A stretch of 42,407 nt of DNA. It comes from a virus. Lineage: Duplodnaviria > Heunggongvirae > Uroviricota > Caudoviricetes. The DNA is taken from positions 1 to 42,407 of IMG/VR virus record IMGVR_UViG_2565956608_000007. One strand, written 5' to 3'. Made by a program: the position numbers and the translations under genes. This document shows positions 12,940 to 35,829 of this stretch, piece after piece. The stretch's first letter is position 1. Every line of letters begins with the position of its first letter. The notes beneath the pieces are model-generated. The model made no database searches and was not told the origin of the DNA. It worked only from the letters and a program-made list of their open reading frames with translations.

Positions 12940-13329
12940 ATGTCCGATCCATTAACCGGCACTGGTGCAGTTCTCGGCGGAGGCCTGCTGGGTTCAGTCC
13001 TGTATGGTGTCTTTACTCATACAGATTTCGGCGTGGTGTTTGGAGCGTTTGGTGGTGCGGTGTTTTACGTCGCGACAGCTGCAAACCTTACGCGTGCTCG
13101 CCTGGCTGCATATTTCCTTACATCATTCATTGTTGGAGTGCTTGGCGCCGGGTTTGTTGGTTCATGGCTAAATGCTGCCTCGAGTTATGAAAAACCACTG
13201 GATGCACTCGGTGCAGTGATTTTGTCTGCACTGTGTATAAAAATCCTAACTTTTCTTAATAACCAGGACCTGAACACCCTGTTCGGTTTTTTCTCACGGT
13301 TACGCGGAGGAGGGGGAAATGGTAATTGA
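12940..13329 (+). CDS. holin
   Basis: 129-aa hydrophobic protein with multiple predicted transmembrane segments at the head of the lysis cassette; GAGGGGG ribosome-binding site. Confidence 0.65.
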   Translation: MSDPLTGTGAVLGGGLLGSVLYGVFTHTDFGVVFGAFGGAVFYVATAANLTRARLAAYFLTSFIVGVLGAGFVGSWLNAASSYEKPLDALGAVILSALCIKILTFLNNQDLNTLFGFFSRLRGGGGNGN

Positions 13330-13597
13330 CCCGTCAGCTGTCTTTAACGCGTTTATCTGCTCGGTGATCGTCGTCGTTCTGATGTTCTACCAGCGCCATG
13401 GTGCCCGGCACCGTCCTTTTATCTCAATCCTGGCGTATATAACCATCCTGGTTTACGCAGTAATCCCATGGCAATTCATCTTCGGCCTCTATCGTGACTC
13501 CAGTTGGCTGGTGGTGATGTCGAACCTCCTGATATGCGCAGCTGTTATGAAGGTCCGGGGAAATCTGGCACGTCTGGTTGATCTTCTGAGGCACTAA
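13319..13597 (+). CDS. second holin-like membrane protein
   Basis: 92-aa hydrophobic protein between holin and endolysin. Confidence 0.5.
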   Translation: MVIDPSAVFNAFICSVIVVVLMFYQRHGARHRPFISILAYITILVYAVIPWQFIFGLYRDSSWLVVMSNLLICAAVMKVRGNLARLVDLLRH

Positions 13598-28060: not shown

Positions 28061-29206
28061 ATGCCGCAGGGATTACCTGTATCTAACGTTGTTAATGTCG
28101 ACGTGATCATTGGGCCGCGTGCGGCTACTGGTCGAAACTTTGGTTCGCTGCTCATTCTCGGGAGCTCAACGGTTATCCCGGTTTCTGAGCGCATTCGCCT
28201 CTACTCATCCCCTGAAGATATCGGCACTGATTTCGGCGTGGATAGCCCGGAATATGAAGCCGCGACCGTGTATTTCTCACAGTCACCAAAACCGCAGCAG
28301 GTGTATGTCGGTCGCTGGGCTAAAACGCTGGTATCGGCTGAAAGCGGTTCGACGGAAACGCTGCTGCAGGCGGTGAACGCCGTTCTGAATTACACGAATT
28401 GGTACGGTCTGGCCGTGGCTGACGATGAAGATATCGACGATGCCGACTGGCTGAGCGTGGCCGCTGCGATCGAGGCCTCAAGTCTCAGCCGAATTCTGGC
28501 GATTACCACTGCAGAGCCTGAGACGGTAAACGCGACCTCCACTACCGACCTGGCTTATAAGCTGAAGGCGGCAAAATACGCTCGCACGTTTGTGCAGTAT
28601 TCCACCAGCAGCAAGTACGCCGCGCTGTCTGCGTTTGGCCGCGCGTTTACTGTGAATTTCAACGGCAGCAACACCACCATTACCCTGAAATTCAAGCAGG
28701 AGCCGGGGATCACCTATGAAACCCTGACTACCAATCAGGCGGCGGCGCTGGATGCCAAAAACTGCAACGTATTTGTGTACTACCAGAACGATACGGCCAT
28801 TCTGCAGCAGGGCGTCATGTCCAGCGGTGATTTCTTCGATGAACGCCACGGGCTCGACTGGCTGCAGAACTACGTTCAGACCAACCTGTATAACCTGCTC
28901 TACACCAGCACAACCAAAGTCCCACAGACCGATGCGGGTGTTACGCGCCTCCTTTCCAATGTTGAGCAGTCTATGGATCAGTCCGTCACGAACGGGCTGG
29001 TGGCTTCTGGCGTATGGAACGGTGGCCCGATTGGGCAGCTGGATTCCGGCGACACACTGACAAAAGGCTATTACGTCTACGCGCAGCCGATTTCCGAGCA
29101 GGCGCAGGCAGACCGTGAAGCACGTAAGGCACCGGTTATTCAGGTGGCCTGTAAGCTGGCGGGTGCGGTCCATTTCGCTGATGTGCAGATCAACGTCGTT
29201 CGCTAA
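28061..29206 (+). CDS. putative tail sheath protein
   Basis: 381-aa ORF directly upstream of a small tube-like protein, chaperone and tape measure. Confidence 0.55.
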
Positions 29207-29217
29207 GGAGAACATGA

Positions 29218-29658
29218 ATGGCTACTTATTCTTTTATGGACGTCACGGCGTCCCTCTCCGGCCCGACCGGCGAGATTGATCTGGGCTACGGTTCCGCCAG
29301 TTCAGAGGAGGGGATCACTGTTGCAATGGGCGGCCCCAAAAATACCATGACCATCGGCGCTGACGGCGAAGTGATGCACAGCCTGCACGCGGATAAAAGC
29401 GGCACGGTAACCGTCAACCTGCTGAAGACCTCGCCGACAAACAAAAAGCTGTCGCTGGCGTACAACGCGCAGAGTCAGTCCTCAGGTACCTGGGGAAACA
29501 ACGTCATTGTGATCCGAAACAAGGTGAGCGGAGACATCATCACGGCGCGCAGCGTGGCGTTCCAGAAACAGCCGGATAACGCCAACGCTAAAGCCGGTAA
29601 TACGATGCCCTGGGTGTTTGACTGCGGCAAAATCGACCAGGTTCTCGGAGAGTTTTAA
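29218..29658 (+). CDS. putative tail tube protein
   Basis: 146-aa ORF between sheath and chaperone. Confidence 0.55.
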   Translation: MATYSFMDVTASLSGPTGEIDLGYGSASSEEGITVAMGGPKNTMTIGADGEVMHSLHADKSGTVTVNLLKTSPTNKKLSLAYNAQSQSSGTWGNNVIVIRNKVSGDIITARSVAFQKQPDNANAKAGNTMPWVFDCGKIDQVLGEF

Positions 29659-29661
29659 CAG

Positions 29662-30114
29662 ATGGAATGCTCAATCAAAGGCCACGATTACCGCGTGGCA
29701 AAACTCAGCGTTTTTGACCAGCTGAAAGTGACCCGCAAACTGCTGCCGGTGCTGGCGGGCATGATGTCAGATTTCGGGAGCATTCGCTCCCTTCTGCCTG
29801 CTGATGGCAAAATCGACACCGTGAAATTCGATCAGCTGAAACCGGTGTTTGAAACCCTGCTCCCGCGTATCGCTGAGGAACTGTCTTCCCTGACCGAAGA
29901 AGACACCAACGCGATTATTCATCCTTGCCTGGCCGTGGTATCACGCAAGCACATGGACGGATGGACGCCGGTATTCAACAGCGGTCAGCTGATGTTCGAT
30001 GATATCGACCTGCTGACGATGCTGCAGCTGGTGGCGCGGGTGGTCGCCGATTCACTGGGAAATTTTTTGCCCGTGAGCCCTACCAGCGCGACGCCGGGCC
30101 AGCCTCAGGGTTAA
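29662..30114 (+). CDS. tail assembly chaperone (short, in-frame product)
   Basis: 150-aa ORF between tube and tape measure genes. Confidence 0.55.
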   Translation: MECSIKGHDYRVAKLSVFDQLKVTRKLLPVLAGMMSDFGSIRSLLPADGKIDTVKFDQLKPVFETLLPRIAEELSSLTEEDTNAIIHPCLAVVSRKHMDGWTPVFNSGQLMFDDIDLLTMLQLVARVVADSLGNFLPVSPTSATPGQPQG

Positions 30115-30302
30115 CCCTCAACAGCCTGCCTGACGGGCTGTCTTATCTCCTTGACCCGGTTGACGCCGGGTTAATCCCTTATTACGCGCTGAAGGATGGA
30201 TCTGTCGATCTGTGCGATATCGCGCTGATGAATGACCACCTGGCCGTTAAAGCTGACAACCAGCGCCGTATAGAGAAATGGAGAGAGGATAATGAACGCT
30301 GA
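29662..30302 (+). CDS. tail assembly chaperone, putative -1 frameshift-extended isoform
   Basis: The -1 frame is open from 30003 to the stop at 30300-30302; slippery A_AAT_TTT / T_TTT_TTG at 30060-30069; extension ends 11 nt into the tape measure gene. Confidence 0.4.
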
Positions 30303-32301
30303 GACTATTAAAGATTTCCTCGTCTCGCTCGGTTTCGATATCGACGAAGCAGGCGCGGAAAAGTTCGATTCAGTCCTCGCCGGTACGACCGCAAACGCTA
30401 TCAAAATGGGGCTGGCCGTCGAAGGCGCCGCGCTTACCGTGGTGGCCTTTACGGCTAAGATCGCCTCCGGTCTGGATAATCTCTACTGGGCGTCACAGCG
30501 CACCGGCGCGACGGTTCAGGGGATTCAGTCTATTGGCTATGCGGTTTCGCAGGTGGGCGGCAGCGTTGACGCGGCGCGCACCTCTCTGGAAAGCCTCTCC
30601 CGGTTTGTTCGTAACAATCCCGGCGCGGAAGGCTTCCTGAATCGCCTGGGCGTACAGACCCGTGACGCCAGCGGCAACATGCGCGACATGGCCGCTATCT
30701 TTACGGGCGTCGGCCAGAAGCTCAGCAGCATGCCGTATTACCGGGCTAACCAGTATGCGCAGATGCTGGGCATTGACGAAAATACCCTCATGGCGATGCG
30801 CCGGGGTGTGGGCGGTTTCTCCGGGCAGTACAGCGCAATGGCGAAAGCTATCGGCTTCAATGCTGACGAGGCGGCCAGAAGCTCAAACAAATTCATGACC
30901 TCCCTGCGCGAGTTCGGCGCGATGGCAGGCATGGCCCGTGACAAAATCGGTTCTAATCTTGCTGGTGGTCTGGCGGGTTCGCTGGACACGCTGCGCCGCC
31001 ACATCCTAGATAACTTCCCGCGCATCGAGCAGACCCTGACGAAAGCCATAAAGGGCATTCTGGCGCTCGGGGACATTATAGGGCGGCTGTTCTTCCGGCT
31101 TATTGAGGGGACATCCAGCCTTATCACCTGGTGGCAATCGCTGGATAAGCAAACGCGGGAGCTAATCTCGTTGTTCGGCGCGCTGACGATTGCGCTGCGC
31201 ATTCTGAACAGTACGTTCTGGATGTCGCCGATTGGCCTCATTACCGCGCTGGCGGCGGGGATTGCCCTTCTGTGGGAGGACTATCAGACCTGGAAGGAAG
31301 GCGGGGACAGCCTGATTGACTGGGGCAAGTGGAAGCCGGAAGTCGACGCCGCGCTGAAGATGGTTCGTGACCTTAAAACGACCGTTAACGAACTGGCGAA
31401 AGCGCTGGCGAAACTGCTCAACATTGACCCTAAATCATGGTCCCTGAAGTGGGATTTCAGCAACTTCATCGACCAGATGGGCGAGTTCAGCAAAATGCTG
31501 AATATGATTGCCGACCTGCTCAACGCCATTAAAGATGGCCGCTGGGCTGATGCCGCCAGCATTGGCAAACAGATGCTTAATCAGGGTAGCGAAAATCCGT
31601 CAGCGATGCCGATGGTAACAGACAGCGCTAACAGTGCCGCTGACTGGATTCAAGATAAGTTTGGTGTCGATCCTCGTAATGTTGGTCGGTGGATAAAAGG
31701 GAGATTTGGCGATGATGAGCCTGAACAGCTCGGCCAGTCAGTCAAGCGGCCACAGCCAACTAAAGCAGGCTCTGAACTGCTGGGATGGATGCAACCGATG
31801 CTTACCAACCTGGAACAGCTCTACCGACTTCCGGAAGGTTTGCTGCGCAGTGTGGCCATCACGGAATCGGGCGGTAATCAGTTCGCCGTTTCAGGCGCTG
31901 GCGCTAAAGGTCTGTTTCAGTTTATGGATGGTACAGCGCGTGACATGGGGCTGCGCGGGAATGATGTTTTCGACCCGGAGAAGGCCGCGCAGGCAGCCGC
32001 AAAGTATCTTTCACAGCTGCTGCAGGCGAACGGCGGTGACCTGAGCAAAGCGCTGGCCTCTTATAACTGGGGGATCGGGAACGTGCAGAAGCACGGGATG
32101 GCCCTTATGCCTCAGGAAACCCGAAACTACATTCCGAAAGTGTTAAGCAATATGCCTGCGCCCGGGGCTCAGGTACAGCAACAGAACACCTATCACATCT
32201 ACGGTGGTGGTGATCCGCGTTCTGTTGGTACCGAGGTCGAGCGCCGCCAGCAGTCGGCAAACGCTCAGGTTATGCGCGGCAATCAAACGAAGGTGGGCTA
32301 A
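30292..32301 (+). CDS. tail tape measure protein with C-terminal lytic transglycosylase (SLT) domain
   Basis: 669-aa ORF; SLT motifs ITESGGNQFAVSGAGAKGLFQFM ... YNWG. Confidence 0.8.
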   Translation: MNAETIKDFLVSLGFDIDEAGAEKFDSVLAGTTANAIKMGLAVEGAALTVVAFTAKIASGLDNLYWASQRTGATVQGIQSIGYAVSQVGGSVDAARTSLESLSRFVRNNPGAEGFLNRLGVQTRDASGNMRDMAAIFTGVGQKLSSMPYYRANQYAQMLGIDENTLMAMRRGVGGFSGQYSAMAKAIGFNADEAARSSNKFMTSLREFGAMAGMARDKIGSNLAGGLAGSLDTLRRHILDNFPRIEQTLTKAIKGILALGDIIGRLFFRLIEGTSSLITWWQSLDKQTRELISLFGALTIALRILNSTFWMSPIGLITALAAGIALLWEDYQTWKEGGDSLIDWGKWKPEVDAALKMVRDLKTTVNELAKALAKLLNIDPKSWSLKWDFSNFIDQMGEFSKMLNMIADLLNAIKDGRWADAASIGKQMLNQGSENPSAMPMVTDSANSAADWIQDKFGVDPRNVGRWIKGRFGDDEPEQLGQSVKRPQPTKAGSELLGWMQPMLTNLEQLYRLPEGLLRSVAITESGGNQFAVSGAGAKGLFQFMDGTARDMGLRGNDVFDPEKAAQAAAKYLSQLLQANGGDLSKALASYNWGIGNVQKHGMALMPQETRNYIPKVLSNMPAPGAQVQQQNTYHIYGGGDPRSVGTEVERRQQSANAQVMRGNQTKVG

Positions 32302-33192: not shown

Positions 33193-34254
33193 ATGTCACA
33201 GAACTGGATGAGACATTTCGAGTTGCAGCTCCTGGACGAGAACGGGCAGGGGATTGAACTCAGCGATTTTAAAGTAACCTTTACGATCGACTGGTTCAAC
33301 ATCAGCAGCGCGTCACGGGTGGGGACGTTCAAAATTTACAACCTGTCTGCAGATACCTCCAACCGTATAACCGGCAAAGAGTTTTCGAAAGTTCGGCTGA
33401 TTGCCGGTTACGACGGTATCGCGCCGGAGGTATCGGCAAGCGACGTCGGGACCGTTCGCGAAGTCGACGCGGCGGACGTGGGACAGAGTGATGGCCGCAA
33501 CTATGGACTTATTTACAGCGGTGAAATTCGCTACTCGGTCACCGGTAAAGACAGTCCTATTGATTCCTACGTCCTGATTCAGGCAGCCGATACGGATCTG
33601 GCTTTTGCCACCAGCATAACCTCGCAGACGCTGGCGGCCGGTTACACAGTCGCAGACGTGAACCGCGCGCTGATGAAAGACTTCGAGGCCAAAGGCGCGA
33701 CCGAAGGCCTTACCCCTGAAATGCCTGCTACCGTATTCCCCCGTGGCCGGGTGCTGTTCGGCATGACACGGCACCTTATGGATAACGTGGCCGGACAATG
33801 TGGCGCAACATGGCAATTCGTGGATGGCCAGCGGCAGATGGTGGCGAATAACGAATATGTTCACGATGCGATTGTGCTCAACAGCGCCACCGGGCTTATC
33901 GGCATGCCGCAGCAGACCATCGGCAACGGCGTAAACGTCCGCGCGCTGATTAACCCGAACATCCGGGTTAACGGGCTCATTCAGCTGGATCAGGCTTCCG
34001 TGTATCGTACCGCGCTGTCGAACAACGATATCGCTATGGCTGGTGGGCAGATCACCGACCAGAACACGGACGGAAATATCACGCTAAGCGGCACCACGGC
34101 GCAACCTGCCAGTATCGCAACGGATGGCGTTTATATTGTGCGCGGGATTATGTACACTGGCGATACAAGGGGCCAGGCGTGGTACATGGATATGATGTGC
34201 GAAGCGCGTGGCGCGGCGGATCTCCGCACTCAGGACTCGCTTAATCGGGGGTAA
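33193..34254 (+). CDS. putative baseplate hub / tail protein
   Basis: 353-aa ORF before the spike gene, in the position of the Mu-type hub gene. Confidence 0.45.
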   Translation: MSQNWMRHFELQLLDENGQGIELSDFKVTFTIDWFNISSASRVGTFKIYNLSADTSNRITGKEFSKVRLIAGYDGIAPEVSASDVGTVREVDAADVGQSDGRNYGLIYSGEIRYSVTGKDSPIDSYVLIQAADTDLAFATSITSQTLAAGYTVADVNRALMKDFEAKGATEGLTPEMPATVFPRGRVLFGMTRHLMDNVAGQCGATWQFVDGQRQMVANNEYVHDAIVLNSATGLIGMPQQTIGNGVNVRALINPNIRVNGLIQLDQASVYRTALSNNDIAMAGGQITDQNTDGNITLSGTTAQPASIATDGVYIVRGIMYTGDTRGQAWYMDMMCEARGAADLRTQDSLNRG

Positions 34255-35036: not shown

Positions 35037-35057
35037 CCCGCCACCCGGCGGGTTTTT
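35037..35057 (+). terminator. Rho-independent terminator after the moron pair
   Basis: CCCGCC-ACCC-GGCGGG followed by TTTTT. Confidence 0.6.
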
Positions 35058-35076
35058 GCTTTCTGGAGCCTACCAA

Positions 35077-35829
35077 ATGGCAGTATCTGACCAGACCCGC
35101 AGCGGCGACCTTGCCGAAACATTCAAATCTGAGCGGGACACGACAAAAAACCAGATCCGCGTCGCTTTGCCTGGTATCGTTCAGTCATTCGACCCTGACG
35201 CGGTGACGGCGGTTGTGCAGCCTGCTATCCGCTCTGTTGAAACCGATAACGACGGCAACCGCGTTACCAAAAATTACCCGCTGCTGGTGGATGTGCCGGT
35301 GGTATTTCCGCGCGGCGGCGGCTGCACGTTAACTTTCCCGGTAAAAGCCGGCGATGAATGCCTGGTGATTTTTGCCGATCGCTGCATCGATTTCTGGTGG
35401 CAGAACGGCGGGGTGCAGGAGCCTGTCGACGACCGGGTGCATGATTTATCGGATGCGTTCTGTATCGTCGGGCCCCAGTCACAGGCGCAGAAAATCAGCG
35501 GAATCAGCACGGGGGCCGCTCAACTGCGCAGCGACGATGGAAGCACGTTCTTTGAGCTCGACCCCACTACGCAGAAAATTAAAATCGTAGCGCCTGGCGG
35601 TCTGGATGTAGTTACTCCACTGGCCGACTTCTCGGCGAAAGTTACAATTCACGGGCTCCTGTCCTGGCTGGGTGGAATGGTGGGTTCAGTTGCTTCTGGC
35701 GTTGCATCCAAAATCACTGGCGCTGTCGAGTTTATCGGTACCGTTAAAGCTAACGGCAAGTCAATTGATGATACGCACACTCACGGCGGCGTACAGCACG
35801 GCACCAGCAACACAGACGGGGTGAACTGA
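35077..35829 (+). CDS. baseplate central spike protein (Mu gp45-like)
   Basis: Motif PLLVDVPVVFPRGGGCTLTFPVKAGDECLVIFADRCID typical of baseplate spike N-domains; ATG at 35077. Confidence 0.65.
   Translation: MAVSDQTRSGDLAETFKSERDTTKNQIRVALPGIVQSFDPDAVTAVVQPAIRSVETDNDGNRVTKNYPLLVDVPVVFPRGGGCTLTFPVKAGDECLVIFADRCIDFWWQNGGVQEPVDDRVHDLSDAFCIVGPQSQAQKISGISTGAAQLRSDDGSTFFELDPTTQKIKIVAPGGLDVVTPLADFSAKVTIHGLLSWLGGMVGSVASGVASKITGAVEFIGTVKANGKSIDDTHTHGGVQHGTSNTDGVN

Follow-up and report, generated by a model that had tools for sequence, protein, structure and literature searches.

Programmed -1 ribosomal frameshifting in the genes of tail assembly chaperones is an ordinary and already known feature of tailed phages, for which the G/GT type provides the paradigm (Levin 1993; Xu, Hendrix & Duda 2004, as summarised in PMC5009743). 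In P2, the heptamer TTTTTTG is the proven shift site of E/E+E' (PMC3091744). Two true homologues of the locus described here are recorded in GenBank as join coding sequences with the product name “tape measure chaperone frameshift product”, namely those of Klebsiella phage Mulock (CPT_Mulock_014/015) and Burkholderia phage Magia (CPT_Magia_015/016), and both products are known from annotation alone. The homologous frameshift is stated in the Magia genome paper (PMC7883833). The Mulock and SEN34 papers make no mention of a frameshift, a literature search for DUF6889 returned zero matches, and no protein, reporter or ribosome profiling data for the Phage_TAC_15/DUF6889 family were found in the literature. 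The frameshift is unannotated in the closest records, which are Yersinia phage YP3, Salmonella phage SEN34, Escherichia phage 606R2 and the E. coli RefSeq prophages. The novelty of a further case is low, because such frameshifts are ordinary in tailed phages and this one is already annotated in homologues.

The stretch of DNA analysed here, referred to as the window, comprises the 42,407 nucleotides of virus record IMGVR_UViG_2565956608_000007. The genes surrounding the chaperone constitute a myophage (contractile) tail module, and the source phage is a prophage. Pfam and PHROG profiles give the gene order as neck terminator, sheath (DUF3383), tube (DUF3277/KPP10_Orf10), chaperone and tape measure with a C-terminal SLT domain, followed by a Dit-like protein, plug, hub, baseplate J, DUF2612 and a fibre protein. 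The coordinates of the relevant features are summarized in Table 1. The SLT domain detected by Pfam in the C-terminal part of the tape measure protein predicts that the ruler protein probably also digests peptidoglycan at infection. We also note that the segment 34257-35036 has a GC content of 37-45%, compared with 54-58% in its flanks, and holds two small ORFs, of 113 aa and 140 aa, whose N-termini are signal-peptide-like and hydrophobic, respectively; a Pfam search of these two ORFs gave no match for either. Situated between the hub and baseplate genes, the segment looks like an inserted moron.

Table 1. Coordinates of the features in the window that are discussed in the text.
Feature	Position	Strand	Remarks
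Sheath gene	28061-29206		DUF3383 / phrog_205
Tail tube gene	29218-29658	+	146 aa, directly upstream of the chaperone; Pfam PF11681 KPP10_Orf10 (DUF3277), E 1.4e-60
Tail assembly chaperone ORF (“G” product)	29662-30114	+	Zero frame, 150 aa, stop TAA 30112-30114
Slippery run GGGAAATTTTTTG	30057-30069	+	G_GGA_AAT_TTT_TTG; three overlapping in-frame X_XXY_YYZ heptamers
G_GGA_AAT heptamer	30057-30063	+	Chaperone frame
A_AAT_TTT heptamer	30060-30066	+	P site AAT, A site TTT; likeliest shift site
T_TTT_TTG heptamer	30063-30069	+	Chaperone frame
Putative “T” segment after the shift	30066-30302	+	-1 frame, 78 codons and TGA 30300-30302
Proposed GT coding sequence	join(29662..30066, 30066..30302)	+	213 aa
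DUF6889 domain in the T segment	30177-30293	+	Fusion residues 173-211; coordinates converted from residue numbers
Shine-Dalgarno-like GGAGAGAGGA	30280-30289	+	Precedes the tape measure ATG, within the end of the T segment; read from the sequence
Tape measure gene	30292-32301	+	669 aa; phrog_2276 tail length tape measure protein, E 1.8e-257
SLT lytic transglycosylase domain, C-terminal part of the tape measure protein	residues 508-604		Pfam, E 7.3e-24
Hub gene	33193-34254		Flanks the low-GC stretch
Next baseplate gene	35056-35829		Flanks the low-GC stretch

The ORF downstream of the tube gene belongs to the tail assembly chaperones by family assignment, with matches to Pfam PF21822 Phage_TAC_15 (E 2.5e-32, 112.5 bits against a cut-off of 22) and to phrog_1688, tail assembly chaperone (E 1.5e-61). 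In the -1 frame, a stop at 30000-30002 is followed by an open frame from 30003 to the TGA at 30300-30302, which lies 11 nt inside the tape measure gene with its ATG at 30292; the same extent, running into the first tape measure codons, had been given in the preliminary description. Two overlapping frames are therefore located between the tube and tape measure genes, and their overlap spans 30003-30111. If the -1 frame were not coding, a 177-nt non-coding gap (30115-30291) would interrupt an otherwise tightly packed operon. The computed translation of the fusion is 213 aa long, close to the roughly 210 aa expected previously. The +1 frame was rejected as a continuation, as it closes at 30131-30133, six codons beyond the zero-frame stop. 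The GGAGAGAGGA element at 30280-30289 would act as the Shine-Dalgarno sequence of the tape measure gene.

The T segment matches Pfam PF21829 (DUF6889) with an E value of 2.2e-21 and 75.7 bits against a gathering threshold of 23.9, over profile positions 2-40 of 40. A wider match to phrog_4364 (“unknown function”; E 1.2e-23) covers fusion residues 161-213, corresponding to 30141-30299. A sequence search of the PDB found no relative (best E 0.64). The AlphaFold2 model of the T segment alone, built on a 20-sequence alignment, consists of helices only and reaches a pLDDT of 58.6 and a pTM of 0.30, values too low for the model to be of use, a fold search included.

The chaperone-frame codons at the slippery run are CTG GGA AAT TTT TTG. 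Slippery heptamers had earlier been noticed in A_AAT_TTT_TTG (30060-30069); the two of them are present in frame, together with a third, G_GGA_AAT (30057-30063), that had been missed. The rate of in-frame heptamers in the 53 putative genes of the window is 0.0039 per codon, from which ~0.15 heptamers are expected in the 37-codon overlap, as compared with the three observed. The overlap (30003-30111) accordingly holds an in-frame slippery sequence, and the exact 13-mer GGGAAATTTTTTG has one occurrence in the window. Elsewhere in the window, the overlapping holin-family genes Phage_holin_8 (12940-13329) and Phage_holin_3_7 (13319-13597) also draw attention, in that the former contains the heptamers T_TTT_TTC and G_GGA_AAT in frame among its last 13 codons. 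These heptamers are probably a coincidence, since the downstream gene lies in the +1, not the -1, frame (12940-13597).

A shift at G_GGA_AAT or at A_AAT_TTT would yield an identical 213-aa product with the junction ...SLGNF-FAREPYQ... and the predicted tryptic junction peptide VVADSLGNFFAR, while a shift at T_TTT_TTG would give the junction ...SLGNFL-AREPYQ... and the peptide VVADSLGNFLAR. The predicted tryptic C-terminal peptide of the zero-frame product is VVADSLGNFLPVSPTSATPGQPQG.

Substitutions were analysed in 79 distinct sequences, comprising 78 relatives with 81-99% nucleotide identity and the window itself. In the body of the chaperone, substitutions peak at the third position of the zero frame (0.098, vs 0.022 and 0.010), and within 30117-30299 they peak at the third position of the -1 frame (0.055, vs 0.008 and 0.005). 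Beyond the zero-frame stop, third-position periodicity thus moves to the -1 frame, which indicates genuine coding by the -1 segment under purifying selection in that frame. In the same set, bases 30057-30068 are invariant, three zero-frame synonymous sites included, and the third position at 30054, two codons upstream of the run, varies in 43% of the sequences. One relative (L017, 1896-1908) has G replaced by T at the position of 30069, which creates a run of seven T with the frame kept. An open -1 frame alone is weak evidence for a fusion; the DUF6889 match in that frame together with its conservation is strong evidence. The length of the -1 extension was tried as a statistic and rejected: the highest-ranking cases are mostly ordinary overlaps between neighbouring genes, so that it carries no information.

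A tblastn search with the fusion retrieved 40 phage records, 39 of which are matched in two separate pieces, in agreement with a difference of frame between the two parts. Nineteen phage or prophage loci from eight or more host genera, with 33-98% identity, were compared further. The hosts are Escherichia, Salmonella, Yersinia, Klebsiella, Hafnia, Citrobacter, Providencia and Edwardsiella, as well as Acinetobacter, Bordetella, Ralstonia, Burkholderia and “Elizabethkingia”. In 19 of the 19 loci, a DUF6889-like domain is encoded in the -1 frame by an ORF which overlaps the end of the chaperone and terminates 167-227 nt (mostly 188 nt) past the zero-frame stop. In the loci having such annotation, the annotated tape measure starts overlap or abut the -1 stop. 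In every lineage the open -1 frame and its conservation (F[FY]xRxxY) extend upstream as far as the slippery site, and the arrangement is kept throughout despite the divergence of the sequences.

The codon-level alignment of the 19 loci reveals a conserved zero-frame motif, NLG[NPSD]F[LI], at the site. An N_NNT_TTT element is common to most relatives and occupies the same alignment column. It takes the form A_AAT_TTT in the enterobacterial clade and Acinetobacter phage AbTJ, and C_CCT_TTT in Burkholderia phages Magia and BgManors32 and phage WC36-2; G_GGT_TTT in the Ralstonia phage and T_TTT_TTT in the Providencia phage are found at about the same place. Only a T_TTT tetramer is left in two distant relatives, E192a and ZHS, and Bordetella phage IFTN9 has G_GGA_AAT as its sole full heptamer, followed one codon downstream by a T_TTC tetramer. 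Of the 99 loci fetched, 87 contain the 13-mer without change.

Taken together, the location of the gene, its protein families, the relation between the frames, the slippery site and the conservation (19/19 loci) all fit the conserved G/GT arrangement that the preliminary description had proposed, and every feature by which membership of this class can be judged from sequence is present, including a coding downstream frame with no ATG, GTG or TTG ahead of its domain. On these grounds the fusion is very probably made by ribosomal slippage, as a G/GT-type programmed -1 frameshift. The sequence comparisons show the frame arrangement, the slippery site, the coding selection, the missing start and the conservation; that ribosomes do shift, how efficiently, at which heptamer and with what role in assembly is inferred.

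Among the three heptamers, A_AAT_TTT (30060-30066) is favoured because the N_NNT_TTT column is shared across the relatives and because it falls in an efficient heptamer class in E. coli. H_HH.U_UU.Y heptamers, to which A_AA.U_UU.U belongs, are among the most efficient classes in that host, and U_UU.Y is its second most shift-prone tetramer (PMC4066793). A shift at A_AAT_TTT is, on balance, the probable one, and contributions of the other two heptamers are possible. The same -1 frameshift could instead occur mostly on T_TTT_TTG (30063-30069) or G_GGA_AAT (30057-30063), which we regard as rather unlikely. The full 13-mer, with all its heptamers, is kept in all ten enterobacterial-type loci, and G_GGA_AAT, which is related to the lambda site G_GGA_AAG, serves as the only full heptamer of IFTN9. 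T_TTT_TTG is the same as the established P2 E/E+E' site, which operates with an E. coli host (PMC3091744); it is nevertheless missing from the Acinetobacter, Burkholderia, WC36-2 and Bordetella relatives, whereas N_NNT_TTT is the element shared widely among the loci compared. Both U_UU.U_UU.G and G_GG.A_AA.Y moreover lie outside the high-efficiency E. coli classes, the former being listed as efficient for eukaryotes only and G_GG.A_AA.C being called low-efficiency (PMC4066793). A different origin of the same fusion would be slippage of RNA polymerase on the T6 of the A3T6 run, with an extra U in some transcripts that are then translated in the standard way. One added T does give the in-frame 213-aa fusion, as in the T7 of assembly L099, and homopolymer runs are known slippage sites. 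Efficient slippage of RNA polymerase in vivo has, however, been reported at runs of 9 A or T (PMC5009743), so that the six T of the window fall short of that length, and the much shorter runs of distant relatives (CCCTTTT, GGGAAAT, TCTTTT) fit tRNA re-pairing instead; we consider polymerase slippage very unlikely. The T7 just mentioned was observed in Logan assembly SRR23924998 (L099, 1896-1909), where it arises by insertion and produces an in-frame 213-aa chaperone-DUF6889 fusion. The fused protein P0001 (213 aa, a cluster of 16 member sequences) is the sole natural in-frame fusion found, and it was not used as evidence, since a homopolymer indel or a mutant is its probable origin.

The remaining explanations dispense with the shift. 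In one of them, the DUF6889 segment is a separate small gene with its own start (54 aa, CTG 30138), in keeping with the free-standing “DUF6889 family protein” CDS that PGAP annotates in E. coli prophages, with the small ORFs annotated in GZ7, yong1, PSTCR3, BgManors32 and ZHS, and with the ATG, GTG or TTG found just ahead of the domain in 6 of the 19 loci. None of these six starts has an obvious Shine-Dalgarno sequence, the CTG start chosen by PGAP is likewise without one upstream, and in 12 of the 19 loci there is no ATG, GTG or TTG between the slip site and the domain at all. In the window, the only such codon in the -1 frame is ATG 30228, inside the DUF6889 domain. Start positions are unconserved; the DUF6889 copies in databases are orphans of 44-78 aa, with N-termini scattered over at least seven alignment columns, as is typical of gene callers faced with an ORF that has no real start. 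A separate gene would also leave unexplained why the -1 frame is conserved as far back as the slip site in every lineage and why the slippery run is invariant at synonymous sites, and we therefore hold it to be highly improbable. It could also be argued that an open -1 frame with heptamers arises by chance in a non-coding spacer, for -1 frames open across stop codons are common in the window, where neighbouring genes overlap. This is effectively refuted by the Pfam match (E 2e-21), the codon periodicity in the -1 frame and the conservation in 19 of 19 divergent loci.

The search for a stimulatory downstream structure that had been proposed along with the frameshift predicted none in the window, by either individual or consensus folding. 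The folds of 30057-30160, 30067-30125 and 30064-30110 are no better than those of shuffled sequences, with z values of +0.22, +0.47 and +0.40, and the consensus fold of eight relatives (-2.64 kcal/mol) has no supported stem near the site. The locus thus lacks the stable conserved structure 5-9 nt downstream of the heptamer that marks IS3/IS911- or dnaX-type sites. P2 has no downstream hairpin, and phage G/GT sites reportedly seldom have such structures (PMC3091744), for which reasons the missing structure poses no problem for the frameshift model; no downstream structure is required at lambda G/GT either (PMC5009743). As to an upstream Shine-Dalgarno-like stimulator, the only candidates upstream of the run are GGTGG and GGGTGG (30030-34 and 30038-43), the nearer of which (30038-43) ends 14-17 nt before the heptamers. 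No such stimulator is claimed, because the match to the anti-Shine-Dalgarno is poor and the codons concerned (LVARVV) are conserved.

A hairpin of the form GGGCUGC...GCAGCCC was observed 6-7 nt after the single heptamer in a sister clade consisting of AbTJ, WC36-2, BgManors32 and Magia, with z values of about -1.8 to -2.1 (L087, 1121-1153; L084, ~937-967; L089, ~1091-1119; L096, ~1091-1119). It is a candidate frameshift stimulator, absent from the clade of the window with its triple heptamer. A speculative and, in our estimation, unlikely possibility is that the enterobacterial triple heptamer is a structure-independent multi-site platform that replaced the single heptamer and hairpin of the sister clade, and that shifts at more than one position to give two GT isoforms (...GNFFAR... 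and ...GNFLAR...). If true, this would be a natural case in which tandem slippery sites have taken over from an RNA stimulator in holding the G:GT ratio.

Under the favoured model of ribosomal slippage, most ribosomes would read 29662-30114 and release the 150-aa chaperone. A minority would slip back by one base on G_GGA_AAT_TTT_TTG, most likely with tRNA-Asn and tRNA-Phe on A_AAT_TTT (30060-30066), and would follow the -1 frame to the TGA at 30300-30302. The resulting 213-aa protein would comprise chaperone residues 1-135 and a 78-residue C-terminal extension with DUF6889. If lambda gpG/gpGT and P2 E/E+E' are a guide, the shared N-terminal part may coat the tape measure protein and the T extension may recruit the tube protein. 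The G:GT ratio would be fixed by the efficiency of the frameshift, and, by the same analogy, neither product would be expected to stay in the virion.

The main value of the analysis is for annotation, as tail chaperone frameshifting is textbook phage biology and no long-standing question is opened. The RefSeq “DUF6889 family protein” (e.g. WP_023229521.1; PF21829) has the same sequence as window 30138-30302 (L002, 2421-2585), and the E. coli prophage bearing it is 98.5% identical in nucleotide sequence over the 1.5-kb stretch from tube to tape measure. The corresponding prophage region of E. coli E2348/69 has 91% identity. RefSeq models it as an independent 54-aa protein from CTG, in contrast to the evidence presented here, which points to the C-terminal part of a frameshifted chaperone. 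With the free-standing 54-aa CDS, the frameshift extension has probably been misannotated systematically. Older NCBI records name the sequence of the -1 segment “NTP pyrophosphohydrolase”, and related sequence is found in 334 of 5,426 complete E. coli genomes. Judged from the sequence comparisons, DUF6889 and phrog_4364 appear to be the T-type extension of Phage_TAC_15 chaperones, and neither a free-standing protein nor an “NTP pyrophosphohydrolase”. Correction of these entries would drop a spurious small-protein family and add a real 213-aa product.

Comparison with lambda gpG/gpGT reveals the same placement of the gene between the major tail (tube) and tape measure genes, an extension without a start of its own, independence of a downstream structure, and a low-level shift, here expected, that would set the G:GT ratio (PMC5009743). 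The proteins have no detectable sequence similarity to those of lambda and belong to the families Phage_TAC_15 and DUF6889. The window phage differs further in being a contractile-tailed prophage (sheath DUF3383), in having as its run a triple heptamer ending in T_TTT_TTG rather than G_GGA_AAG, and in an extension that ends inside the tape measure gene. P2 resembles the window phage in being a myophage and in placing a -1 shift between its tube and tape measure genes; its TTTTTTG site is contained verbatim in the window run (30063-30069), and a downstream hairpin is found in neither (PMC3091744). The E and E+E' products of P2, at 91 aa and 142 aa, are of another protein family (PMC3091744), and the comparative data presented here favour A_AAT_TTT, one codon upstream of TTTTTTG. 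The true homologues in Mulock and Magia, with 59% and 39% amino acid identity to the fusion, respectively, share the gene order and the -1 relation with the window. Magia carries C_CCT_TTT with a hairpin 6-7 nt downstream, in contrast to the window, which has no hairpin, and Mulock carries the identical GGGAAATTTTTTG run.
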